64,000 nucleotides of DNA, from contig BDTY01000050.1 in NCBI GenBank assembly GCA_002897955.1, forward strand, positions 2,641 through 66,640. The letters are read 5' to 3'. Of this stretch, positions 1 through 51,186 are shown piece after piece. The stretch comes from an archaeon BMS3Bbin15 (GTDB lineage Archaea; Hydrothermarchaeota; Hydrothermarchaeia; Hydrothermarchaeales; BMS3B). Each line of letters starts with the position of its first letter. Within the stretch, counting starts at the first letter, position 1. Under the pieces are notes generated by a model. That model was not told the origin of the DNA. It saw only the letters and a list, made by a program, of their open reading frames with translations, and ran no database searches. The position numbers and the translations under genes were made by a program.

Positions 1-384
1 ATGGTTGTTCCTCATGCTATTTTTACTGGTCCTCAGCTTGCGGGAGTTGGATTAACAGATGAACAGGCAATTGAAAAAGGAATAAAATGTAAATGCAATA
101 CAGTTTCTATGGAATTAGTCCCGAAAGCCCTGGCAATTAAGAATACAAAAGGTGCTGTAAAAATGGTTGTTAATGCCGAAACTGATGAAATCACAGGTAT
201 CCACATTTTAGCACCCGAAGCAGCTGACTTAGTACATGAAGGAGTCATGATTGTCAAAAACAGAATGAAAATTGATGATGTAATAAATACATTACATATT
301 TTTCCTACACTATCTGAAGCAATAAAAATCGCTGCTCAATCATTAAGAAGAGATATAACTAAGATGAGTTGCTGTGTAGAGTGA
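1..384 (+). CDS. merA: mercuric reductase MerA, C-terminal 127 aa (5' end lies outside window)
   Basis: C-terminal interface domain of a pyridine nucleotide-disulfide oxidoreductase (FTGPQLAGVGLTDEQA). It ends in the vicinal Cys pair ...KMSCCVE that is diagnostic of MerA. Confidence 0.6.
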   Translation: MVVPHAIFTGPQLAGVGLTDEQAIEKGIKCKCNTVSMELVPKALAIKNTKGAVKMVVNAETDEITGIHILAPEAADLVHEGVMIVKNRMKIDDVINTLHIFPTLSEAIKIAAQSLRRDITKMSCCVE

Positions 385-520
385 AAAATAAGATTAAGGG
401 AGAACATTACAATTTAAGGAGAAAATGATAAAAAAAGTATAGAGCAATGCTTATATGTCTGAATTGCAGACTATAGCTAGCTTTTTGGAATTTTTGGACT
501 GCCTTTCCGCCTGAAATGCT

Positions 521-832
521 TCAGGGCTTATAGTGCCTCTCCAGCTGATTGTACCGCTTGATTATAATGGTTTTGAAATCTTCCTTAGATTTCATTATCT
601 TTCTGGCAGTTGTCTTATCACCCAGATATAAAACCCAGCTGGCAATCCACTCCGCCTCCTGTGTTGTGAAGTTATTGATATTATCTCTGAGCTCTCTGAA
701 GTTTTTTATCACCTGCTCATCCTTATAGTAGGGATTTTTCCCATCAGCTTCAAAAAGCTTCCTTGCTATTTTAGGTAAGGTTATCCTCTTTCCAATACCT
801 TTCGACCTGCCCCTTTTCTTTCTAAAAGCCAA
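521..832 (-). CDS. hypothetical small basic protein (K/R-rich N-terminus)
   Basis: 103 aa ORF with no recognisable motif. It sits between merA and the glycosyltransferase gene. Confidence 0.3.
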   Translation of the reverse strand: MAFRKKRGRSKGIGKRITLPKIARKLFEADGKNPYYKDEQVIKNFRELRDNINNFTTQEAEWIASWVLYLGDKTTARKIMKSKEDFKTIIIKRYNQLERHYKP

Positions 833-867
833 AATGTCACCTCCTATTTCTTGAGTTATCTTCCTTT

Positions 868-2043
868 TTATTGCTTATAAAATTTGATGTATCTGGATGC
901 TATAGTGTTCCAGTTGAAGAATTTTCTGGCTGCCTCCTGCCCCTGTTCACCCAGGCTTTTTACGCCCAGTGGGTCATTTATTATATAATTTATTCCCCAG
1001 GCAATCGACTCGGGGGTTGGGAATACCTTGATGCCATTTACAAAGTTGTTGATATTTTCTCCCAGCCCACCTACATCTGTGGCTACCACAGCCTTCCCGG
1101 CAGACCAGGCTTCAAGAAGCACAAGGCCAAAAGGCTCATTTCTGCTGGGAATGCATACAATATCACTGGCATTTAGAAGCTCAAGATATTCCTCATCTGG
1201 AATATATCCTAAAAACTGAACTGCATGGGAGACACCATTTTTTCTGGCAAGGTATTCAAGATGACCTCTCATGCCGCCGCCGCCTGCAATAACAAATCTT
1301 GCGTCCCAGCGGTGTCTGAGCACATGTGGTATGGCATTCACCAGAAGGTCTGGCCCCTTCTGGGTTACCAGCCGTCCTATAAAAAAGATTAGGGGTGCAA
1401 GGGGATGAATTCCATACTTTTGCTTAACCCTGCCGGGGTCAACCTCCCTTTTAAACTTCTCTGATTTTATTCCGTTGGGAATAACATCCACTTTCCAGTC
1501 AGGAATATTGTATAACCCGCCCAGTTCATTCTTCATTGTATTGGAAACAGTGGTTATTCTATCAGCGACGTAGCCACCGTACCATTCCCTGCCGGAAATT
1601 TCCCTGAATTCATACCATTCCCCGAAGGCATTCCCGTTCCTTCCCCATTCAGTAGAGTGGTAGGTTAGAATAAATTGATATCCCTTTTGAAGTTTCAGGT
1701 GGTTCAGGGCATTTATCACATGCCAGTCATGGCCATGCAGCACATCAAATTTTCCTTCCTTCTCAACTTCGTAGAACCTCTTTACCATGGAATCTGCCAT
1801 CTTATCGCAGAATTCCAGAATATTGCCGGCAGGGTCAAAGGCGCATCTTTGATATACAACACCTTCAATTTCTTCTCTGACTGGCTGGTTGTCTCCTATC
1901 CTTGTAAACAGATGTACCTCGTGTCCTTTATCTGCCAGGGCTTCGGACAGATATGTTACTGCGGGTGCCATCCCACCGACTCTGATGGAGTAGAGGGACT
2001 CCCAGGAAAACATAGCAATTTTGAGTGTCTCCATAGATACCAC
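868..2043 (-). CDS. GT-B fold glycosyltransferase (family 1 / GT4-GT5, glycogen-synthase-like)
   Basis: 391 aa. It has a C-terminal EPFGLVLLEAWSAGKAVVATDVGGL motif (E-X7-E type GT-B signature) and an N-terminal KIAMFSWES..GG pattern. Confidence 0.6.
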   Translation of the reverse strand: MVSMETLKIAMFSWESLYSIRVGGMAPAVTYLSEALADKGHEVHLFTRIGDNQPVREEIEGVVYQRCAFDPAGNILEFCDKMADSMVKRFYEVEKEGKFDVLHGHDWHVINALNHLKLQKGYQFILTYHSTEWGRNGNAFGEWYEFREISGREWYGGYVADRITTVSNTMKNELGGLYNIPDWKVDVIPNGIKSEKFKREVDPGRVKQKYGIHPLAPLIFFIGRLVTQKGPDLLVNAIPHVLRHRWDARFVIAGGGGMRGHLEYLARKNGVSHAVQFLGYIPDEEYLELLNASDIVCIPSRNEPFGLVLLEAWSAGKAVVATDVGGLGENINNFVNGIKVFPTPESIAWGINYIINDPLGVKSLGEQGQEAARKFFNWNTIASRYIKFYKQ

Positions 2044-2105
2044 AATTATCTATTCACTGTCTATTATAAATAACTTTCAATAATCAGAGTAGGGGTATGT
2101 AATTT

Positions 2106-3470
2106 TCAGAAAAGGAATTTTCTGGCCCTCACAAATCTCCATATCTGTCCGAGTTCACTTATATCATGTGTTTTAATGATATACTTGAATTCATTTAATA
2201 TCCTTCCTGGTCTCAGGTAAAACTGGGTGTATGCCTTTACAAGTAGGTCTTCGAGTTCCTCCGGTTTTAAATACTCTGTATTCATCACTCCGTGTGTGCC
2301 GTCCAGAAATTCCAGGTTTTTCCTTATTATTCTGTTATGCACCTTCTCCCAGAGTTCTGTTCCCGGTAAAGGCGTAAGAATGGAGAACTGGGCAACATCA
2401 GGGTTCAGAGTTTTCGCAAATTTTATTGTATTCTCTATCATATTTCTGGTTTCTTTAAACTCTCCAATGATGAAGCTTCCTATAATGCCCATTTCGCTGT
2501 CCTTCAGGATTTTAAAGGCCTTCTTTATCATCTCCACATTTGTTTTCTTGTTATAGCTTTCCAGCACCTCCTCATTGACGCTTTCAATGCCCATGTAAAC
2601 TGCTGTGCAGCCTGCCTCTGCCATATCCTCTACCATCCAGGGGTTTTTTATAATTGTATCAACTCTGGACATGCAGCCCCATTTTATATCCACACCCCGC
2701 TCTTTTATCTCGTTGCATATCCCCTCAACGCGTTTCGGGTCAAGGGAAAAATTGTCATCCACAAAGGAGAGTGCCTTGTATCCATACCTGAACCTGATTT
2801 CCTCTATTTCTTCCGCCACATTACCGGGACTTCTTGCCCTCCACTGCAGTCCATTCAATCTGGAAGCTGAGCAGAAGCTGCAGCCGAAGGGGCAACCCCT
2901 GCTGGAGACAGCTGAGGCCACAACTTCACCATCCATCTTCATATATCCCTTTGCTTTAAGATTGAAAAGGTGCCTTGCAGGGAATGGCAGGGTATCAAGG
3001 TCTTTGATGAAGGGTCTGTCTTGATTGCGTTTAACCTCTCCATTGGCACTGTAAGTAAGCCCCTTTATTCCTCTGAAATCCTGACCTTTTTCCAGTGTAT
3101 CTATAAGCTCAGAGAAAGTATATTCACCCTCTCCTCTGACTGCAAAGTCAAAAACATCAAAGGCATTATCATCTACAAAAGATGCATGGGGTCCGCCTAT
3201 AATCAGAGGTATGTCCGGTTCGTTATCTCTGATTCTTTTGGCGACCTTCAGGGCTTCCGGATATGTGGGTGTGAGGCTTGTTATTCCCACCGCATCATAG
3301 CTGGAAAGCCCATTATCATTCCATTTTTCCACAGATAGGTCAAGGATTTTGACATTGTGACCCCTTTTCTCCAGCACAGCGGCTATGTAACCAAGACCTA
3401 TCGGTGGCAGGTTAAGGTTGAATTCTTTGAAGCCCTTGAGAAAAGGTGGGTTAATTAGAAGCACTTTCAT
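2106..3470 (-). CDS. B12-binding domain radical SAM protein
   Basis: The N-terminus (MKVLLINPPF...IGLGYIAAVLEKRGHNVKILD) is a cobalamin-binding Rossmann-like fold. CPFGCSFC is the CxxxCxxC radical SAM motif. The likely start is the internal Met, because the ORF track begins 16 codons upstream. Confidence 0.65.
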   Translation of the reverse strand: MKVLLINPPFLKGFKEFNLNLPPIGLGYIAAVLEKRGHNVKILDLSVEKWNDNGLSSYDAVGITSLTPTYPEALKVAKRIRDNEPDIPLIIGGPHASFVDDNAFDVFDFAVRGEGEYTFSELIDTLEKGQDFRGIKGLTYSANGEVKRNQDRPFIKDLDTLPFPARHLFNLKAKGYMKMDGEVVASAVSSRGCPFGCSFCSASRLNGLQWRARSPGNVAEEIEEIRFRYGYKALSFVDDNFSLDPKRVEGICNEIKERGVDIKWGCMSRVDTIIKNPWMVEDMAEAGCTAVYMGIESVNEEVLESYNKKTNVEMIKKAFKILKDSEMGIIGSFIIGEFKETRNMIENTIKFAKTLNPDVAQFSILTPLPGTELWEKVHNRIIRKNLEFLDGTHGVMNTEYLKPEELEDLLVKAYTQFYLRPGRILNEFKYIIKTHDISELGQIWRFVRARKFLF

Positions 3471-3539
3471 ACCAGAACCCCCTCTCGTACACCAGCAGTG
3501 TAAGCTGGAAAATACCATTCTGCAACTCTATTAAATAGT

Positions 3540-5570
3540 ATAACAATCTCATGCATACTTTCCCCTCCTTTCAGGACTGCCACGAATCTGCTTTTATTTC
3601 TCTTTTGTTTTTGCTGTGTTTATCCCCTGATATTGATTTATCGAGCTCCTGCCCGTAAATCAGCAGCATATATCCCCCTTCCCTTCCTATTCCTTCCTTT
3701 ACTTTTTCCCCCATAAAAATACCTCCATATTGTACATATATATCCTTTTTGTAACAATTGAAATGTTGGAACCCATATTTCCCACCCCTATAATACCGAA
3801 CTCTGCGATTTATCTGTCATCTTCCACTGGCCGCAATAGATATCTGCAGTAAAGCCAGACATTTCTACCACCCGCCGTTGGTTGTTTGTTAGTGGTTTTG
3901 ACAGCCAGATTGTCATCTGCCCTTTGTGAATCATATATAGGACAAGGATACCAGAAAGGACGGTTTGAAGAGCATAAGAGGTTGGTTTCTTGGTTTTTTG
4001 CCGGTTGAGCCCTCTGATAGGTTTTTCATCCTTTACTGCCAATGCCATCCTTACCCGCCTTTCCCACAGAGTGTAGATTACAGCGGCCATCATCAAGACA
4101 TATCCAAGGGACGCAAGACGTTCCTGTTTCTTTAGACAGAAAGCACCTATCCATGCAGGGTTCTTTATGAATTTGAATATCCGCTCGACATTTCCCTGAC
4201 CTTTGTATTTCTCCAGAACCAATCTTGCAGGGTACTTTTTCGCATCCATCAAAGTTGTTATCAGCACGAACATCCCGCACCGCTCTAAAGCGTTATTGAC
4301 TGCGTCCTCTCTCACTAACAACCTACCGCTCAGATAATACCCTGTCTGGAATTGACGTACATCGCCCTTCTTCGGCCTTCCTCGTTTTGTCCGCTTGAGA
4401 GCCTCCGTTCTCTCTTCTATATTCCATTCAATATCGTGGTAGCCCATCTGAAAATCGGAATTATGTCTGTTGATTTCAATATATGCGTCTTCCATGCAGG
4501 CAAATCGCCTTTTCAACAGTTTCTGGATGCGTTTGCTGTTCATATCGAATTCTTTTTTGACAGACCGCTCTACGGCCTTTGTTTTTCGCTTGTCCTTGTG
4601 GTCGGAGTGGACAACCACGAACCGATACGTTTGGCCGTCTATCTCGCCGCTGGTATCCCAGACCTTGTAGGATGCGGCATCTTTCTCCTGCGAGAGCTTG
4701 CCGACAGGAGTCCATTCGTCGGTGTTGAACGCCTTCTTCTTCAGCTCATCTTCGATTCCGAATCTTCCTGGCAATCGCGAAATGATATCTATATTTGCCT
4801 CCTTGCGTATTCTGAGGTTGTTTGTTGTCACCGCTGAACTGTCGGCGATGTAAAGTAGGAATTCATCATCTTCCTCTTTTTGCATTATGTTCCTGAGGTT
4901 CTTGACCCAGCGTCCGTTGAGGGTCATGTCCGACTCGTTACCATTGGCCACTTCACCAATGATTGGAACCCCGTCTGCGGTCGTGCCCACCCCGAAGATC
5001 AATTGTTTCAGGTCTGGCCGATGGTCCTTGGAGTAACCAAGGTTGACCTGCGGAACTGTTTCGTCCTCAAAATCATCCTTGTAGGCACCATGGAACGACT
5101 TCGAGGTGGTGTCTACATGGACGGCATCGGTTGAAAGCCCATGGACCGCTATCGCGGAATTGACGACCGCCCCGAACACTTGTTGAGGGTTTGCCTCCCA
5201 TAAAGCGTCCAGCACCCTTCCAGCACGGTCATCGTTGATATCTACAACGCTAAGATCAGGTTTCCAGGGAATAAGGAGGGGGAGGGCCTTGTCTTTGAAG
5301 AACTCGTCCATTTTGTACATCTTGATGTTGACATCACCCAATATGTGATGTATGAAAAGCCCCACATAAGTCCCTGCATCGACGTTTACCTGTGTGTCGT
5401 AGGGCTGGACGATGCTGTTAATAGTCCCTGCCAGACCAATCTCTTCCATAAGTTGGCCCAATATAGGGTAATAATCCGCCCTGAGGGCATGGATGTTGCC
5501 ATATTTTTCAAACATAGTTGAATAATGCAGCCGGAATATTTAAACCTTATGACCGTTATTAGGACATAAT
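3540..5570. mobile_element. insertion sequence (IS1634-like), ends approximate
   Basis: A single transposase ORF flanked by non-coding sequence. I could not identify terminal inverted repeats by eye, so the boundaries are uncertain. Confidence 0.35.
3788..5515 (-). CDS. DDE transposase, IS4/IS1634-like family
   Basis: 575 aa. It carries the GYSKDHRPDLKQ signature that I associate with IS1634-group transposases. The size fits that family. Confidence 0.6.
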   Translation of the reverse strand: MFEKYGNIHALRADYYPILGQLMEEIGLAGTINSIVQPYDTQVNVDAGTYVGLFIHHILGDVNIKMYKMDEFFKDKALPLLIPWKPDLSVVDINDDRAGRVLDALWEANPQQVFGAVVNSAIAVHGLSTDAVHVDTTSKSFHGAYKDDFEDETVPQVNLGYSKDHRPDLKQLIFGVGTTADGVPIIGEVANGNESDMTLNGRWVKNLRNIMQKEEDDEFLLYIADSSAVTTNNLRIRKEANIDIISRLPGRFGIEDELKKKAFNTDEWTPVGKLSQEKDAASYKVWDTSGEIDGQTYRFVVVHSDHKDKRKTKAVERSVKKEFDMNSKRIQKLLKRRFACMEDAYIEINRHNSDFQMGYHDIEWNIEERTEALKRTKRGRPKKGDVRQFQTGYYLSGRLLVREDAVNNALERCGMFVLITTLMDAKKYPARLVLEKYKGQGNVERIFKFIKNPAWIGAFCLKKQERLASLGYVLMMAAVIYTLWERRVRMALAVKDEKPIRGLNRQKTKKPTSYALQTVLSGILVLYMIHKGQMTIWLSKPLTNNQRRVVEMSGFTADIYCGQWKMTDKSQSSVL

Positions 5571-5867
5571 ATGTTCGGAACGCTTATCGCATTCAGATTG
5601 AGACCACCCCAAGACCCAAACGAAGCCAGCAAGCTGGTCAAGAAATTATATGGACAGAAAACAAGCAGCCACAAAGGCCGATATCATTATCGAAGAAAGG
5701 GCATTCTTGACGAGATACCGGCACATAGGTTGATCCGGGGAGTTATTGTGGTTAGAAAGAAGGATGAAGAAAGGATACTCTCATTTCTGAGGGAATATGA
5801 CACTGAGATATTCGTCAGAAAGGTAAAGTTGACCGATGATGATTTGACGGTAATGGAAATCAAATAA
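5571..5867 (+). CDS. hypothetical protein
   Basis: 98 aa ORF immediately beside the IS. No motif recognised. Confidence 0.25.
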   Translation: MFGTLIAFRLRPPQDPNEASKLVKKLYGQKTSSHKGRYHYRRKGILDEIPAHRLIRGVIVVRKKDEERILSFLREYDTEIFVRKVKLTDDDLTVMEIK

Positions 5868-6155
5868 CAAAAAGGGAAGGTGAAAAAATATAGAAGTTTG
5901 TTCAAGAAGGGTGCGAAATGTAGGTTATAACGTGTAAGAAGCCCATTTCTGATGTCTTCGGGATTCTTGAAATCAATAAACCATGCTGAGTGGATAATGT
6001 GATTTCTGTGTTCCCCCAGCTGAACGATGCGTTTAAATACGTTGTCCAGCACTTTGGTTTCTACCGCGTATAACTCCTGTGTCTCTGCAAGCAAAGTAAC
6101 AAAGAACGGCGCTTTTTGACGTCAGCTGAATTTGAATTGTTAGAAGTTTTTCTCT

Positions 6156-9905: not shown

Positions 9906-10232
9906 TTTGAGGAATTACAAGAAGTAAAGAAATTGCAAAAGGAATAACCACGCCTGACCTGTTTCCCATGCCGCACAGTATCCAGTAAACAATCCATGGA
10001 ATAAAAGAAACAAGAATGTAAAGCATCCCCGGCATTTTTCTTTTATTCTGCATTGTTCCAATGCCCATAATTATGTTCACCCCCTCTTTATTATACCTTT
10101 ATACTTTTTTACCTATTTGTTTATCTGCTTACTTATACTTTATTTTACTCACGTGCATATTCATATTATTGTGATTGTTAATCGAGCTTTCTATGAAAAC
10201 TTTCAAGATGTTAGAATAAAGGATAAGAATAT

Positions 10233-10306
10233 GCGGCCGTAGTATAGCCTGGCTAGTACACGAGCCTGCCACGCTTGTAGCCCGGGTTCAAATCCCGGCG
10301 GCCGCA
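10233..10306 (+). tRNA. tRNA-Gly (GCC)
   Basis: Cloverleaf readable by eye: acceptor GCGGCCG/CGGCCGC, anticodon loop CTGCCAC, T-arm CCGGG-TTCAAAT-CCCGG, discriminator A. No encoded CCA. Confidence 0.85.
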
Positions 10307-10318
10307 TTTAATTTATAC

Positions 10319-10648
10319 TTAAATAATGCTGAGAACCTTCTTCAAATTTTCATCTTTAAGCTTATAATATCTCCACTTCCCTGCCCGTCTCTCGTTCACG
10401 GCATCAATCTCTTTGAAGCTTCTCAGATGGTGGGAAACAAGCGTCTGGTCTATTTTTAAAGCTCTTTCGAGTTCGCATACGCAGCGCTCTTTATTTTTTA
10501 TCAGAAGGGCAATCTTTAACCTTATAGGGTTTGAGAGCAGCCTGAAAATTTTCAAAAACTCCTCCACATCCGCGACTTCCAGCTCCGTATCTTCAACAGA
10601 ACACATATCCATAATATTAGATTGATGCAAACATTTAAATACTTTCAT
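10319..10648 (-). CDS. arsR: ArsR/SmtB family metalloregulator
   Basis: A winged HTH with the CVCELERAL metal-binding motif ahead of the recognition helix. It is divergent from ACR3. The real start may be the internal MDMCSV. Confidence 0.75.
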
Positions 10649-10662
10649 GTGACAAAAGCTTC

Positions 10663-30308: not shown

Positions 30309-30381
30309 TGGACCCGCCGGGATTTGAACCCGGGGCCTCTCGCATGCCAAGCGAGCGATCTACCATCTGAGCTACGGGCCC
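30309..30381 (-). tRNA. tRNA-Ala (GGC)
   Basis: The reverse complement folds as a cloverleaf: acceptor GGGCCCG with a G3:U70 pair (the Ala identity element), anticodon loop TTGGCAT, T-arm CCGGG-TTCAAAT-CCCGG. Confidence 0.85.
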
Positions 30382-36131: not shown

Positions 36132-36207
36132 ATAGCGGGGGGTCGATTTGAACGACCGGTCTCCGGGTTATGAGCCCGGCGGGATGGACCTGGCTACCCC
36201 ACCCCGC
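36132..36207 (-). tRNA. initiator tRNA-Met (CAT)
   Basis: The reverse complement has the A1:U72 acceptor pair, three consecutive G:C pairs at the base of the anticodon stem (CCGGG/CCCGG), and anticodon loop CTCATAA. These are archaeal initiator features. Confidence 0.8.
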
Positions 36208-36595
36208 TTCAGAACTTACAGGGGGTAACCGGATTTATAAAGAACTTTCCCGAGTGCAGTGTTTTTGAAATTGCACTTCAGGCATGAAAATATCTGTACT
36301 GTTAAAGTAGATGAAGTTAGGGTATGCGGAATGCATGCTACAATATATACATAACTATTTGATTTACGTAAGATTTTTAAACATGTAAATCAACCTAACA
36401 TCTTACCTATAATTATAACGGAAAGTATTTAAGTATTGAATTGGTTTAAACATTTGTTAAAGTTTGTATATAGCTCTCGGTTCATATGGTGATACAATGC
36501 TCAGATTATTTGTTTGCAGTTGCATGAAAGTTCATGATAATTCAGATGGAACTATGGAGGAGAGTGAGGTTACATTATGACAAGGAGAGATACTT

Positions 36596-48076: not shown

Positions 48077-48237
48077 TGAAATACCTCCTGTTAATCTATT
48101 TCAATCTATTTTTTCAGTAGTATTACTAAATATACAACCCTTTATAAAGCTATTTAAGAGGTGTTATGAAATTTTATGAAAATTCTGATTTGAGTAATAT
48201 ATGATGACAGGCTTTATATACTTAACATGATAATGAT

Positions 48238-48247
48238 ATCATATGAT
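48238..48247. promoter_or_regulatory. perfect palindrome ATCATATGAT upstream of merB (candidate operator)
   Basis: The same 10-mer recurs at about 48977 upstream of the ArsR-type regulator gene. Confidence 0.4.
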
Positions 48248-48284
48248 ACCTTGGTCATTTTTAATGTGGCCGACCATGTAGCGG

Positions 48285-48941
48285 GTGATTATCATGAAAA
48301 GGCTTATGGAGCAAATCGGAGAAGCGGTGAGAGGTCGGATAGGGGAGGCAGAATTAAGCCACCTTGAGAACGAAATCCGGAAATGCATACTGAGGGGGTT
48401 TGCGAGAGGAGGCAGAGCCCCTGCCCCTGAAGAAATTGCGGCAGAGCTGGTTCTGCCCATTGACACAGTCAGCAAAACTATAGAAAAGCTTGGAAATGCC
48501 GACATTCTGCTGAGTAAAGGAGGTCATATTATATCCGCGTATCCTTTCTCAGCTGTTGAAACGCGTCACAGGGTGATTTTTGAGGATGGGCATGAGGTCT
48601 ATGCTCTCTGCGCCACCGACGCTCTTGGTATTCACTTCATGCTGGGTGATAATATAACCATACTCTCAAGATGCCCGGAATGCGAAGATGAGATTAGAAT
48701 TGTAGTCAAGGAGGGCAGGATAACCTCTGCAACCCCTGAGGATGCTGTTGAATTTGTTGGTGATAGGGAGAGGTGCGGATGCACAGCGGAAACCATGTGC
48801 CCTTTCATCAACTTCTTCTGCTCCCAGGAGCATCTGGAGGCGTGGAGATTGAAAAATTTAGAATACAGAGATGGGGAGATTTATTCACCAAACGAAGCCT
48901 TGGAATACGGCAGGTCTATATTTGGAGATTTTGTAAAATAA
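48285..48941 (+). CDS. merB: organomercurial lyase MerB
   Basis: YALCATDAL aligns with the MerB catalytic Cys96/Asp99 motif. CPFINFFCSQEH corresponds to the Cys159 region. Confidence 0.65.
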   Translation: MIIMKRLMEQIGEAVRGRIGEAELSHLENEIRKCILRGFARGGRAPAPEEIAAELVLPIDTVSKTIEKLGNADILLSKGGHIISAYPFSAVETRHRVIFEDGHEVYALCATDALGIHFMLGDNITILSRCPECEDEIRIVVKEGRITSATPEDAVEFVGDRERCGCTAETMCPFINFFCSQEHLEAWRLKNLEYRDGEIYSPNEALEYGRSIFGDFVK

Positions 48942-48976
48942 TTGCGAAAGTTTTATATAATTTATATGATACTCTA

Positions 48977-48986
48977 ATCATATGAT
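48977..48986. promoter_or_regulatory. second copy of palindrome ATCATATGAT, with the ATATGATAC half-site repeated 13 nt upstream
   Basis: It lies directly upstream of the ArsR-family gene, as expected for an autoregulatory operator. Confidence 0.4.
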
Positions 48987-49320
48987 GTATGAATCATTCA
49001 AACTCTTCGCAGGCGTGCTATCCAACCGTACCCGCTTCGACATAGTGATGCTGCTCATGAAGAAGGAGATGAGCGTTCTTGAGCTGTGCAGTGAGAGCGG
49101 TTATGAGCAGAGCAGGGTATCTCACAACCTCAGGTGTCTCCTCAACTGCGGTTTTGTTGATGTGGAACAGCAGGGCAGGAGGCGTGTTTACAGCCTTAAC
49201 CATGAAATGAAGGATTTAATATCAGGAATGGAAAATCATATCCAGCTTTATGAAGTCAGGCTGAGAAAGTGCGATATTCTGAGGGAGGAGGGCATAACTT
49301 CTATCAGGGTGGAAAGATGA
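48982..49320 (+). CDS. ArsR/SmtB-family HTH regulator (probable metal-responsive repressor of the mer locus)
   Basis: Winged HTH MSVLELCSESGYEQSRVSHNLRCL. Confidence 0.7.
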   Translation: MMYESFKLFAGVLSNRTRFDIVMLLMKKEMSVLELCSESGYEQSRVSHNLRCLLNCGFVDVEQQGRRRVYSLNHEMKDLISGMENHIQLYEVRLRKCDILREEGITSIRVER

Positions 49321-49751
49321 AAGGCAGAAAATTAAATCCTGTACTTATTCTGTTCATTTTAGTTGCAGTTTTTTTTGTAGTTTATAATCTGTATCCTTTA
49401 TTCGGTGGAAATAACCCTGGAGAATTAAAAAATTTGAATAACCAGTCATACAGCAGCAAAACACCTGTAATTTACTACTTCTGGCTCCAGTGCACGGAGT
49501 GCGAGTCGACAAATAAGGCAGTGTCGGAAGCTGCTGAACATTACAGGGGGAAAATTGAATTTAGATTGATAAATGTAGTAACAAACAAGAATGCTAAATC
49601 TATTGCAAATATGTTTGGTGTGAAATATGTCCCATACCTTGTATTTTTAGACGGGAATGGAAATCTACTGAAGAAAAAGGGTGGAGAAACGAGTTACAGG
49701 GAAATTACAGAAATTATAGAAAATCTGTATCCCAAAGTTAAGGAAGGATGA
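49314..49751 (+). CDS. membrane-anchored thioredoxin-fold protein (CxxC)
   Basis: N-terminal TM helix, then VIYYFWLQCTEC (CxxC) and a cis-Pro region KYVPYLVFLDGNG. The ATG overlaps the regulator stop in an ATGA arrangement. Confidence 0.5.
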   Translation, partial: KMKGRKLNPVLILFILVAVFFVVYNLYPLFGGNNPGELKNLNNQSYSSKTPVIYYFWLQCTECESTNKAVSEAAEHYRGKIEFRLINVVTNKNAKSIANMFGVKYVPYLVFLDGNGNLLKKKGGETSYREITEIIENLYPKVKEG

Positions 49752-49752
49752 A

Positions 49753-50013
49753 ATGGGAGATAAAAAGAAAAAGCGTGGCATAATTGTAGCAGCAGGTGGA
49801 TTGATTGGTCTGATTACTGCCTCAGCCTGCTGCCTGCCTGTGGTTGCCGTGCTACTGGGTGGTCTTGGTGGAATAAGTCTCGTTATTGCAATTGCAACAT
49901 ACAAGCTGCCTTTAACTCTCCTGGGAATAGGTCTTATACTGTTGAGCCTGTGGTACTATATGAGAGAGGATAAATGTGAGAAGTGTAATCTCGAAAAGGA
50001 GGTAAAAAAATGA
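49753..50013 (+). CDS. MerF/MerT-like small mercury transporter (two TM, vicinal Cys)
   Basis: TM1 carries SACCLPVV, the CC-(L/V)-P motif of MerT/MerF. A second Cys pair, CEKC, sits at the C-terminus. Confidence 0.45.
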   Translation: MGDKKKKRGIIVAAGGLIGLITASACCLPVVAVLLGGLGGISLVIAIATYKLPLTLLGIGLILLSLWYYMREDKCEKCNLEKEVKK

Positions 50014-50708
50014 AATTTGAAATAGAGGTGATGGCTGAGAAGGTTTGCAAAAGGTGTGAAACAGAGGGTATGAAAGTTGTACCTCTAACTCTGGGGGTGC
50101 ATGTAAAGGAGGAGTATTGGGACAAAATAGACGAGGACTTTTACTTCTGTCCTTCACAGGAGTGCGATGTGGTGTACTTCAACAATGTTAAGGATGTTTA
50201 CCTCACAGAGGCTGAGGTTAAAACAAGGGTAGGAATTAAAGAAGATTCTGAGCCAAAGCCTCTGTGTTATTGCAACAGGGTTACGGATGAAATGCTCAGG
50301 AAGGCGATTATCGAGGAGAAGTGCTGTTCCACTCTCGAGGGTGTTCAGGAGGTTACGAATGCGGGGAAGGGCAGGTGGTGCCTGACAACAAATCCCTCTG
50401 GCAGGTGCTGCGAGTGGTATCTCAAGGATATAATAAACTCATATCTGAGTCAGGTGGAGGTTGAAGCTTCGGAGGATGTGAAGAAGGAGAAAGCTTTGAA
50501 GAGGCTGGTGCTGAAGGTTACAGGAATGACATGTCAGGGCTGCGTGGGAGTTGTCAGGGGTAACCTGGAGAGTGTGGGAGCAGGCAAAGTCAGAGTGTCT
50601 CTCAGCGGGGGTAAGGCAGAGATGCTTGTGCCTCAGAGTGATAGCGCTGAAAAGTTTGTGAAGGCTGTCAGGAATGCCGGGTATGAGGCAGAGGTTGTGG
50701 GAAGGTGA
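50010..50708 (+). CDS. CopZ-like metallochaperone: Cys-rich N-terminal domain fused to a C-terminal HMA domain
   Basis: The C-terminus LKVTGMTCQGCVGVV is an HMA GMTCxxC motif. The N-terminal 130 aa carry about 11 Cys (CKRC, CPSQEC, CYC, CCS, WCL, RCCEW). This resembles the Zn/[2Fe-2S] domain described for Archaeoglobus CopZ. Confidence 0.55.
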   Translation: MKFEIEVMAEKVCKRCETEGMKVVPLTLGVHVKEEYWDKIDEDFYFCPSQECDVVYFNNVKDVYLTEAEVKTRVGIKEDSEPKPLCYCNRVTDEMLRKAIIEEKCCSTLEGVQEVTNAGKGRWCLTTNPSGRCCEWYLKDIINSYLSQVEVEASEDVKKEKALKRLVLKVTGMTCQGCVGVVRGNLESVGAGKVRVSLSGGKAEMLVPQSDSAEKFVKAVRNAGYEAEVVGR

Positions 50709-50859
50709 GTTTGTAAAAGTATGGGGGTTGTACTACTAACTATATTTGAATGTAAAGAGGAGCACTGACTAAAATAGTATTTGAAGAGAATATAATAGAA
50801 AGGAGTAGAAATGCTTATAAAACCAGGTATAAAAATATAATGGAACTGGGTGTAAAATA

Positions 50860-51186
50860 ATGTTTATAATAAAGTCTCTGGCCCTCTTTGTCCTTGCAGG
50901 TCTTGCTGAGATTGGAGGTGGATATCTTGTGTGGCAGTGGTATCGAGAGAGTCACAGCATTTATATTGGTGTCCTGGGTGCCATAATCCTTGTGCTTTAC
51001 GGCATAATTCCCACCTTCCAGCCTGCCAGTTTCGGCAGGGTATATGCTGCTTATGGCGGTATCTTCATCGTTATGGCCATATTATGGGGCTGGATGATAG
51101 ATAAAAAGCCTCCTGATATCTTTGAACTAATAGGTGGGGGTATATGCGTGATTGGAGTATTCATAATAATGTACTGGCCAAGGTGA
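50860..51186 (+). CDS. UPF0060 (YnfA) family small membrane protein
   Basis: 108 aa, four TM segments. RVYAAYGG motif identical to E. coli YnfA. Confidence 0.7.
   Translation: MFIIKSLALFVLAGLAEIGGGYLVWQWYRESHSIYIGVLGAIILVLYGIIPTFQPASFGRVYAAYGGIFIVMAILWGWMIDKKPPDIFELIGGGICVIGVFIIMYWPR

Follow-up and report, generated by a model that had tools for sequence, protein, structure and literature searches.

A probable modular mer-type operon with an ArsR regulator, a CopZ-like Fe-S protein and a decayed merA in a hydrothermal archaeon

A 64,000-nucleotide stretch of contig BDTY01000050.1 from the archaeon BMS3Bbin15 (Hydrothermarchaeota), here called the window, carries at positions 48285-51186 six open reading frames (ORFs) that a preliminary description had read as a compact mercury locus. 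Our analysis indicates that positions 48213-50708 are likely to form one transcription unit, running from a TATA box and a palindromic operator through merB, arsR, trx, mini-merT and copZ, and that this unit is a modular mer-type operon under ArsR control, with which an anaerobic hydrothermal archaeon would handle organomercury and Hg(II). The conserved core of the system is promoter/operator-merB-arsR-copZ, and merA is an optional 3' module. Coordinates below are positions in the window, and L-numbers denote loci or assemblies fetched for comparison. The elements of the unit are as follows.

48213-48220, + strand: candidate archaeal TATA box (TTTATATA) of the merB operon, a predicted promoter read from the sequence
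48233-48249, + strand: candidate operator for ArsR, a palindrome (core TCATATGA) that lies between TATA box and start codon
48294-48941, + strand: merB, predicted organomercurial lyase of a divergent anaerobe/archaeal subfamily, 215 aa (Pfam MerB, signature residues)
48982-49320, + strand: arsR-family metalloregulator with candidate cysteines C52, C56 and C97 (NF033788, HTH_5)
49317-49751, + strand: trx, membrane-anchored thioredoxin-fold protein, 144 aa, with one N-terminal transmembrane (TM) helix and C59-T-E-C62
49753-50013, + strand: mini-merT, two-TM protein of 86 aa with C26-C27 in TM1 (ASACCLP) and C75-x-x-C78 predicted to be cytoplasmic
50010-50708, + strand: copZ-like gene, predicted Zn/[2Fe-2S] N-domain with 11 Cys and a C-terminal HMA domain (GMTC175QGC178)

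The ORF list places the six co-directional genes on the + strand where the preliminary description had put them, and profile searches uphold its family assignments for five of the six: a MerB with the YALCATDAL motif, an ArsR-type regulator in second place, a CxxC thioredoxin-fold membrane protein in ATGA overlap with the regulator (borne out also by an AlphaFold model), a CopZ-like protein in which an HMA domain (GMTCQGC) is joined to an Archaeoglobus-type Zn/[2Fe-2S] domain with about 11 Cys, and a YnfA-family protein. Within the unit, arsR and trx as well as mini-merT and copZ overlap by 4 bp, trx and mini-merT are separated by 1 nt, and merB and arsR by 40 bp. The longest ORF of merB begins with GTG at 48285, and the conserved start is the ATG at 48294. 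Upstream of merB, CTTTATAT is conserved in L006, L001 and L002 and presumably serves as promoter. The palindrome core TCATATGA is conserved in the window and in the same three loci, which is consistent with binding by ArsR; in L001 the operator is a perfect 16-bp palindrome, TGCATCATATGATGCA.

The window MerB matches Pfam MerB (PF03243) with 113.2 bits (gathering score 27) over the full profile, positions 1-126 of 126, and it matches MerB2 (PDB code: 5c17) with E = 4e-11 and R831b MerB with E = 1e-7. Residues C109, D112, C130 and C172 align to C96, D99, C117 and C159 of the solved MerB structures (R831b numbering), in which Cys96, Asp99 and Cys159 are catalytic and Cys117 is structural. All four are kept in the window protein and are invariant in 21 homologues of the subfamily, and they constitute the MerB criterion of Christakis et al. 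2021 (PMC8261052). The signature residues suggest that the window MerB cleaves C-Hg bonds. The subfamily, at ~55-68% identity, extends through Methanoperedens, Methanomicrobiales, Hydrothermarchaeota, Nitrospirota, Geobacter and Dehalococcoidia. Its hosts (Geobacter, Methanoregula, Methanomicrobiales, Nitrospirota and Dehalococcoidia; loci L013-L035) overlap lineages known for hgcAB mercury methylation.

Beyond the canonical signature, the subfamily has additional invariant or near-invariant cysteines (C133, C164/C166 and C179), and C130-P-x-C133, C(G)C166 and C179 may build an extra four-Cys metal site. The Nitrospirota MerBs carry an N-terminal extension of ~40 aa and reach 255 aa in total. 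In Methanoperedens (L003:3027-5936, also L008 and L014), merB-merA comes after an ArsR gene whose product has the same three Cys, the gene of a 704-aa double-ABC ATPase, a 55-aa ORF and a gene for a small 4Fe-4S ferredoxin; these genes are another accessory set for the same MerB subfamily.

The ArsR protein scores 67.4 bits with NF033788 (cutoff 55) and 45 bits with HTH_5 (cutoff 22). The motif C-L-x-N/W-C-G, which holds C52 and C56, and the C-terminal C97 are common to all 11 aligned MerB-linked ArsRs, including two from Armatimonadota. The three cysteines make up a plausible three-thiolate Hg(II) site, and ArsR is predicted to act here as the functional analogue of MerR. S. solfataricus and S. 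lividans provide established cases of mer operons under ArsR-type repressors (PMC3466566).

The thioredoxin-like protein matches Pfam Thioredoxin with 29.8 bits against 23.5. It starts at the ATG of the ATGA overlap with arsR, and its sole distant homologue agrees with this start. The AlphaFold model (mean predicted local distance difference test score 77, ~87-94 in the fold) contains a TM helix (residues 8-25) that a disordered linker connects to a classical thioredoxin fold; the latter superimposes on thioredoxins with a root mean square deviation of ~1.8 Å and has C59-T-E-C62 at the N-terminus of helix 1. The positive N-terminus predicts that the thioredoxin domain faces outward. Among 5.8 billion proteins, the homologues of this protein are one 99% copy and one distant relative (48-51% identity) in L058, an 879-bp contig of another hydrothermal metagenome, which encodes an ArsR C-terminus, the Trx-like protein (with C-V-E-C), a 76-aa mini-MerT and the start of CopZ. 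The mini-MerT of L058 is 59% identical to that of the window and retains ASACCLP and CEKC. The order ArsR-Trx-miniMerT-CopZ is thus conserved across substantial divergence, and Trx and mini-MerT are a real cassette; the notion that the two are species-specific orphans was dropped on the same evidence.

The 86-aa protein had been taken for a two-TM MerT/MerF-type importer. The SACCLP motif, the C-terminal CxxC and the MerT-type relatives support the MerT side of this assignment, but the MerT match is sub-threshold (PF02411, 16.5 bits against a gathering score of 32.9) and Pfam MerF gives no match at E <= 0.1. Four NCBIfam MerT-type models are matched weakly, among them MerTP NF033556 (22.8 vs 180) and NF010314 (19.9 vs 150). 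A HMMER search of 1.84 billion representatives gave 14 relatives at E <= 1e-3, and 9 of the 10 that were scanned match MerT, MerTP or MerT-CopZ models, all under the curated cutoffs; with phmmer, the protein also finds the MerT-HMA fusions of L002 and L009, which are mer loci. Its alignment with Tn501 MerT and with the MerT-HMA fusions of mer loci covers TM1, TM2 and the pair of cytoplasmic cysteines: ASAC26C27LP corresponds to ASACCLGP of Tn501 MerT, and C75-EK-C78 to the cytoplasmic pair C-KPGEV-C. There are two hydrophobic helices only, and the alignment stops short of MerT TM3. By sequence, the protein can be classed as a two-helix member of the MerT superfamily with a MerF-like topology, outside the MerF family. 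It resembles MerF in having two TM helices with two Cys pairs, and it aligns with the first two helices and the Cys motifs of the MerTP fusions (NF033556). In contrast to MerTP and MerT, it has no HMA domain and no third helix, and it is paired with a thioredoxin-fold protein.

The CopZ-like protein passes the thresholds of zf_CopZ (PF18423, 55.2 vs 28.4 bits), Fer2_BFD (PF04324, 26.4 vs 26.0) and HMA (PF00403, 30.2 vs 24.8), and its N-domain scores 155 bits to the N-terminal domain of A. fulgidus CopZ (PDB code: 2HU9). All nine cysteines of the A. fulgidus N-domain are kept (C13, C16, C47, C52, C86, C88, C124, C133 and C134). In addition, a vicinal pair, C105-C106, lies in a 4-residue insertion that is found in nine of nine fused CopZs at identities as low as 56% but neither in A. 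fulgidus CopZ nor in stand-alone N-domain proteins. NCBIfam has models for stand-alone N-domain families, and the window protein stays below the cutoffs of these (NF047645, NF045877).

A metagenome scan with the fused-CopZ alignment returned eight loci, six of them from other organisms and five annotated. The gene orders are ArsR-CopZ (L047/L050), ArsR-MerTP-CopZ followed by a merA remnant (L048), MerTP-CopZ (L051), CopZ with a Trx-like protein and DsrE (L052), and CopZ alone (L053). The genomic partners of the fused CopZs are ArsR, MerB, MerTP or MerA and never CopA: a CopA-type copper ATPase stands beside none of the nine fused-CopZ loci examined, and a reading of the protein as a copper chaperone was rejected on this ground. 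A stand-alone CopZ N-domain that passes the NF047645 cutoff adjoins MerB in Geobacter, Methanoregula, Methanomicrobiales and Methanosarcinales. An anti-correlation of the CopZ N-domain with MerA across loci was not seen; the domain occurs both with and without MerA, which gives no support to the idea that it replaces MerA. Downstream of CopZ, two loci without merB carry TusA and a class-V aminotransferase (cysteine-desulfurase-like; L050:8847-10296 and L051:6766-8191), and a third, L052:969-1882, also without merB, carries the 197-aa Trx-like protein and DsrE. These sulfur-trafficking genes recall SaoT and SaoD of the SAO system.

To assess conservation, 35 species-level MerB loci were fetched and their ORFs were searched with the window proteins. 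Beyond assemblies of the window's own population (L042-L045 and L049), the full six-gene block was not found, so that the six genes, which the preliminary description had treated as a unit, are conserved within that population only. The Trx-like protein is absent from the 35 MerB-centred loci of other species, as is YnfA, and it is missing from the CopZ-centred loci of other organisms too; L049, a fragment from the same population, carries trx. What holds across species is the order ArsR-Trx-miniMerT-CopZ, found in the divergent L058, and not the block as a whole. In the closest different species, L006, MerB is 92% identical and the sequence is collinear with the window from ~44,000 through arsR. 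From there it lacks ~49,292-49,958, an interval that corresponds exactly to the trx and 86-aa genes; collinearity returns in copZ, after which an NrtS-like gene takes the place of ynfA. An indel of exactly these two genes shows a variable transporter slot at the arsR/copZ junction. The slot is empty in L006, is filled by a MerT-HMA fusion in L002 and by Trx and mini-MerT in the window and L058; MerT-HMA fusions occupy the same slot in L009, L048 and L051 as well.

The core itself, merB-arsR-copZ, recurs in L001, L006 and L046. L001 and L002 lie at the same chromosomal site (EamA ... KaiC-like), and the former consists of merB-arsR-copZ and the latter of merB-arsR-MerTP-copZ-merA. The L002 MerA passes the equivalog model TIGR02053 (549 bits vs cutoff 454). 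MerA adjoins MerB in about half of the 35 species-level loci: it is directly beside MerB in L002, L003/L008, L009, L011, L014, L019, L022, L023, L025 and L026, beside MerB with a frameshift in L017 and L032, and ~2.5 kb away on the opposite strand in L038. The NmerA domain is absent from all eight neighbouring MerAs whose N-terminus was read. The preliminary description had proposed a self-contained thiol or Fe-S relay. As a replacement for MerA, such a relay is not the ancestral arrangement, given that merB, arsR and copZ of relatives adjoin an intact core MerA, in L002 and in about half of the MerB loci; the frequent presence of a core-only MerA beside merB/copZ instead indicates a modular mer-type operon.

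The window holds one further mer-type element.

1-384, + strand: 3' end of a merA pseudogene, the last 127 codons, ending MSCCVE

As had been described, no merA is adjacent to the locus, and a MerA-type 3' end does lie 48 kb away at the window start (82% identical to the L009 MerA, which adjoins MerB). This copy is, however, a pseudogene, so that the suggestion that the locus relies on it as a distant reductase is refuted. The sister assembly L041 matches window 1-3771 with 100% identity and runs 2.2 kb further. In it, merA has an in-frame stop right after the start (MMKN*IERFD, the asterisk marking the stop) and has lost residues 62-104 and 204-260, and the three surviving pieces are spread over two frames. 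Identical lesions are found in five assemblies (L041 and L054-L057), of which L054-L057 come from different sequencing runs; hence the pseudogene is genuine and was not created by assembly. The fragments are 74-77% identical to an intact orthologue and contain no internal stops. A DDE transposase gene (DUF4277 and DDE_Tnp_1) occupies window 3788-5515 on the - strand, ~3.4 kb from the pseudogene, and L041 breaks and rejoins at this transposase, with L041 1-270 equal to window 5652-5921 in the opposite relative orientation.

Erosion of merA beside an intact merB or copZ recurs in other lineages. In Methanoperedens BE2012 (L007:10670-11134), a remnant of ~460 bp retains residues 1-55, 308-352 and 417-463, merA is reduced to its last 33 codons in L034:11222-11320 and to its last ~57 codons in L048:1396-1566. 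Single merA frameshifts in L017:7893-9294 and L032:480-1869 could be sequencing errors. In L034 (Methanosarcinales METP1), merB is itself split into two overlapping ORFs of 131 and 120 aa (10004-10655) beside the merA remnant, which could reflect decay of the entire module at this locus or a mistake in the assembly. In the window genome, merB, arsR and copZ are under purifying selection. The ratio of nonsynonymous to synonymous substitution rates (dN/dS) is 0.17 for merB against L006, 0.11 for arsR and 0.15 for copZ; against L006 and L001 the three genes span 0.11-0.26, and the value for glnA is 0.14.

These features suggest a route for mercury through the cell. The three-Cys ArsR would repress from the TCATATGA palindrome just downstream of the TATA box and would be released by Hg(II) or an organomercurial. 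The outward-facing, anchored CxxC protein would replace the periplasmic MerP and pass Hg(II) to the TM1 Cys pair of mini-MerT, from which, as homology and topology suggest, it would be handed to the cytoplasmic CxxC of the same protein; in archaea, which have no closed periplasm, the anchoring of the Trx protein makes sense. MerB would break the C-Hg bond through its Cys/Asp/Cys site. The CopZ-like protein would take Hg(II) from both MerB and the transporter via its HMA CxxC, possibly also via the vicinal CC pair, and would thus be a free-standing equivalent of NmerA, the domain that the MerAs of this lineage lack wherever the start was read. Of the acceptors of MerB-bound Hg(II), NmerA is the most efficient according to Hong et al. 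2010, as cited in PMC4525700. In relatives, Hg(II) would then be passed on to the core-only MerA encoded next door. With merA a pseudogene in the window genome, the end-point of Hg(II) must be something else there, for which sequestration on the Cys-rich chaperone, sulfide precipitation, an unlinked reductase, Fe-S-mediated reduction and efflux are candidates.

The locus shares with the broad-spectrum mer operons (merR-T-P-A-B, for example Tn501/R831b) a MerB with C96/D99/C117/C159, a protein of the HMA Hg-binding type and a MerT-like protein with TM1 and cytoplasmic Cys pairs. With the ArsR-regulated mer operons of Sulfolobus/Saccharolobus and Streptomyces it shares an ArsR-type repressor instead of MerR (PMC3466566; PMC8261052), and in its relatives MerA is immediately adjacent, as in known mer operons. 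Unlike these, the window genome has no functional merA as far as seen and no MerP, an anchored Trx-fold CxxC protein standing beside the transporter instead; its transporter has two TM helices rather than three, and its HMA domain has a Zn/[2Fe-2S] domain, not MerA, as its fusion partner. The archaeal mer operons described so far mostly consist of merA alone or of merA with arsR and a TRASH-domain gene (PMC3466566). A. fulgidus CopZ (AF0346) has the same zf_CopZ Zn site, BFD-like [2Fe-2S] domain and C-terminal HMA domain with GMTCxxC. The window protein differs from it by the C105-C106 pair, and proteins of the window type have ArsR, MerB, MerT-HMA and MerA as partners rather than a copper ATPase.

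A likeness also exists to the SAO system and its lyase SaoL (Haft & Gwadz 2022, bioRxiv 10.1101/2022.07.06.499078), which likewise combines a MerB-like lyase in an anaerobe with thioredoxin-like and Cys-rich metal-handling proteins. SaoL (NF040728, 'organometallic lyase') is the best NCBIfam match of the window MerB, with 86.5 bits against a cutoff of 140, and the window proteins weakly match the models of SaoL, TsoR, CopZ_Nterm_CU, UxxU and the MerT/CopZ selenoproteins, all far under the cutoffs. In contrast to SAO, the window MerB has C172-P173 where SaoL carries a CU or CC dipeptide, ~50 residues from the C-terminus, and the locus lacks the ABC transporter SaoA/P/B, SaoX, SaoE, SaoC, SaoT and SaoD as well as selenocysteines. 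The SAO families are reported to be exclusively bacterial. Membership in SAO/SaoL was therefore rejected: the score is under the cutoff, the CC/CU dipeptide is missing, none of the nine-gene neighbourhood is present and the host is archaeal. The linkage to MerA in relatives argues for detoxification, not for the energy metabolism proposed for SAO.

Several points weigh against a mer-type operon. The window MerB falls under the NCBIfam equivalog cutoffs (NF009710/NF033555, 75.7 vs 193 and 65.8 vs 200 bits), which places it in a divergent subfamily rather than with the characterised proteobacterial or Gram-positive type and means that its substrate could be another organometal. Mini-MerT is under every curated threshold, the sole characterised homologue of the CopZ-like protein is a copper chaperone, and the fused-CopZ loci L050, L052 and L053 have no mer gene nearby. 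Functions are predicted from sequence throughout, for the Trx protein and mini-MerT as well as for this MerB subfamily and CopZ clade. The only merA in the sequence searched is a pseudogene, and a second merA could lie elsewhere in the genome. In bacteria, MerB without MerA lowered methylmercury resistance, according to Krout et al. 2022 as cited in PMC10349881. An importer without a working MerA is expected to sensitise cells, so that the operon may be a decaying remnant or serve another purpose.

Detoxification independent of MerA would account for the loss of merA, and we consider it improbable, although it is the most probable of the alternatives. Here, in hydrothermal and other anaerobic archaea, the Fe-S CopZ-like protein and the three-Cys ArsR would form the core, and Hg(II) from MerB or import would be reduced or immobilised, making merA dispensable. 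Either a ferredoxin-reduced [2Fe-2S] domain would send electrons to HMA- or CC-bound Hg(II) to yield Hg(0), or the Cys-rich protein, with sulfur-trafficking partners, would hold Hg(II) as thiolate or sulfide. A dead merA combined with purifying selection on merB, arsR and copZ fits this idea, as do the merA remnants beside intact merB/copZ in L007, L034 and L048 and the merA-less L001 at the syntenic site where L002 has merA. So do the extra conserved vicinal Cys pair of the CopZ clade and the TusA, cysteine-desulfurase-like and DsrE neighbours of CopZ in L050-L052. The N-domain of A. fulgidus CopZ is also reportedly redox active toward Cu(II). On a wider scale, ~half of the MerB-encoding genomes are without MerA, and alternative sinks have been proposed (Christakis et al. 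2021, PMC8261052). However, the same CopZ stands beside an intact MerA in L002, and a stand-alone N-domain occurs with MerA in L026, which argues that CopZ is not by design an alternative to MerA. A [2Fe-2S] cluster is moreover a one-electron carrier, whereas the step from Hg(II) to Hg(0) takes two electrons; the scheme has no experimental precedent, and a second merA may exist elsewhere in the genome.

Still less probable in our view is that the locus is a decaying remnant, on its way out after a recent loss of the reductase and with no coherent function beyond residual MerB activity. The high identity of the merA fragments to the intact orthologue and their freedom from internal stops do suggest recent inactivation; the locus content is highly variable among close relatives, and a transposase lies near merA. 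Against decay of the operon itself, its five genes are intact and their dN/dS against L006/L001 is as low as that of glnA, at least three species (L001, L006/L046 and the window) share this core without merA, and the Cys motifs of Trx and mini-MerT are kept at 48-59% identity in L058. A non-mercury function, in which copper/silver, general thiophilic-metal or other organometal homeostasis is built around ArsR-CopZ and MerB acts on a non-mercury organometallic substrate, is very improbable: the copper chaperone 2HU9, the ArsR-CopZ pairs without mer genes in L047/L050, the SaoL match of a MerB below the equivalog cutoffs and the tie of YnfA to thallium resistance would fit it, but none of the nine fused-CopZ loci has a CopA-type ATPase, equivalog-level MerA and MerT-HMA fusions share the same operons, all four MerB signature residues are present and the defining features of SAO are absent.

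On the reading as a modular mer-type operon, the locus bears on a question of mercury cycling, the fate of MerB-generated Hg(II) in MerA-less organisms. It offers a compact natural case: a maintained merB operon with regulator, uptake module and redox-capable Fe-S/HMA chaperone, a dead merA, and relatives with or without merA. It also adds candidate mer parts, namely a three-Cys ArsR subfamily with a palindromic operator, an anchored thioredoxin-fold protein with a two-helix MerT, and an NmerA analogue fused to an Fe-S domain. Among archaea, MerB has been recorded but is rare (11 of 1959 genomes), and demethylation by MerB has been demonstrated in no archaeon (PMC8261052). The merA pseudogene, the recurrent erosion and the purifying selection raise the interest of a different route for Hg(II), which the preliminary description had named as one option; if true, a MerA-independent CopZ pathway would explain both the repeated decay of merA beside merB/copZ and the survival of organisms with MerB only. 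A literature search found no description of a CopZ-mer link or of a Trx-MerT cassette, and these two features and the recurrent loss of merA appear to be undescribed so far.

The sixth gene of the locus lies downstream of the unit.

50826-50840, + strand: AT-rich TATA-like element, 20-34 nt upstream of ynfA, read from the sequence as a putative promoter
50860-51186, + strand: ynfA (UPF0060), SMR-like membrane protein (PF02694, NF002586)

Its assignment to the YnfA family stands, with 141.6 bits for PF02694 (against 24.9) and 137.5 for NF002586 (cutoff 114), but its place as a conserved member of the locus does not. YnfA is absent from the CopZ-centred loci of other organisms as well as from the MerB-centred ones, copZ and ynfA are 151 bp apart, and the TATA-like element in this gap suggests a separate ynfA promoter. 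Together with the other gene after copZ in L006, this led us to reject ynfA as an operon member; it is probably a neighbouring gene outside the operon. YnfA is possibly a soft-metal efflux protein, and its co-location is plausible in a metal-rich habitat. In bacteria, UPF0060 has a conserved thallium(I)-resistance phenotype and sometimes lies beside czcD or zntA (Price et al., bioRxiv 10.1101/072470). A scan of the window with Rfam found no RNA element in or next to the mer locus, and its only matches are three tRNA genes at 10233-10306 (+), 30309-30381 (-) and 36133-36208 (-).

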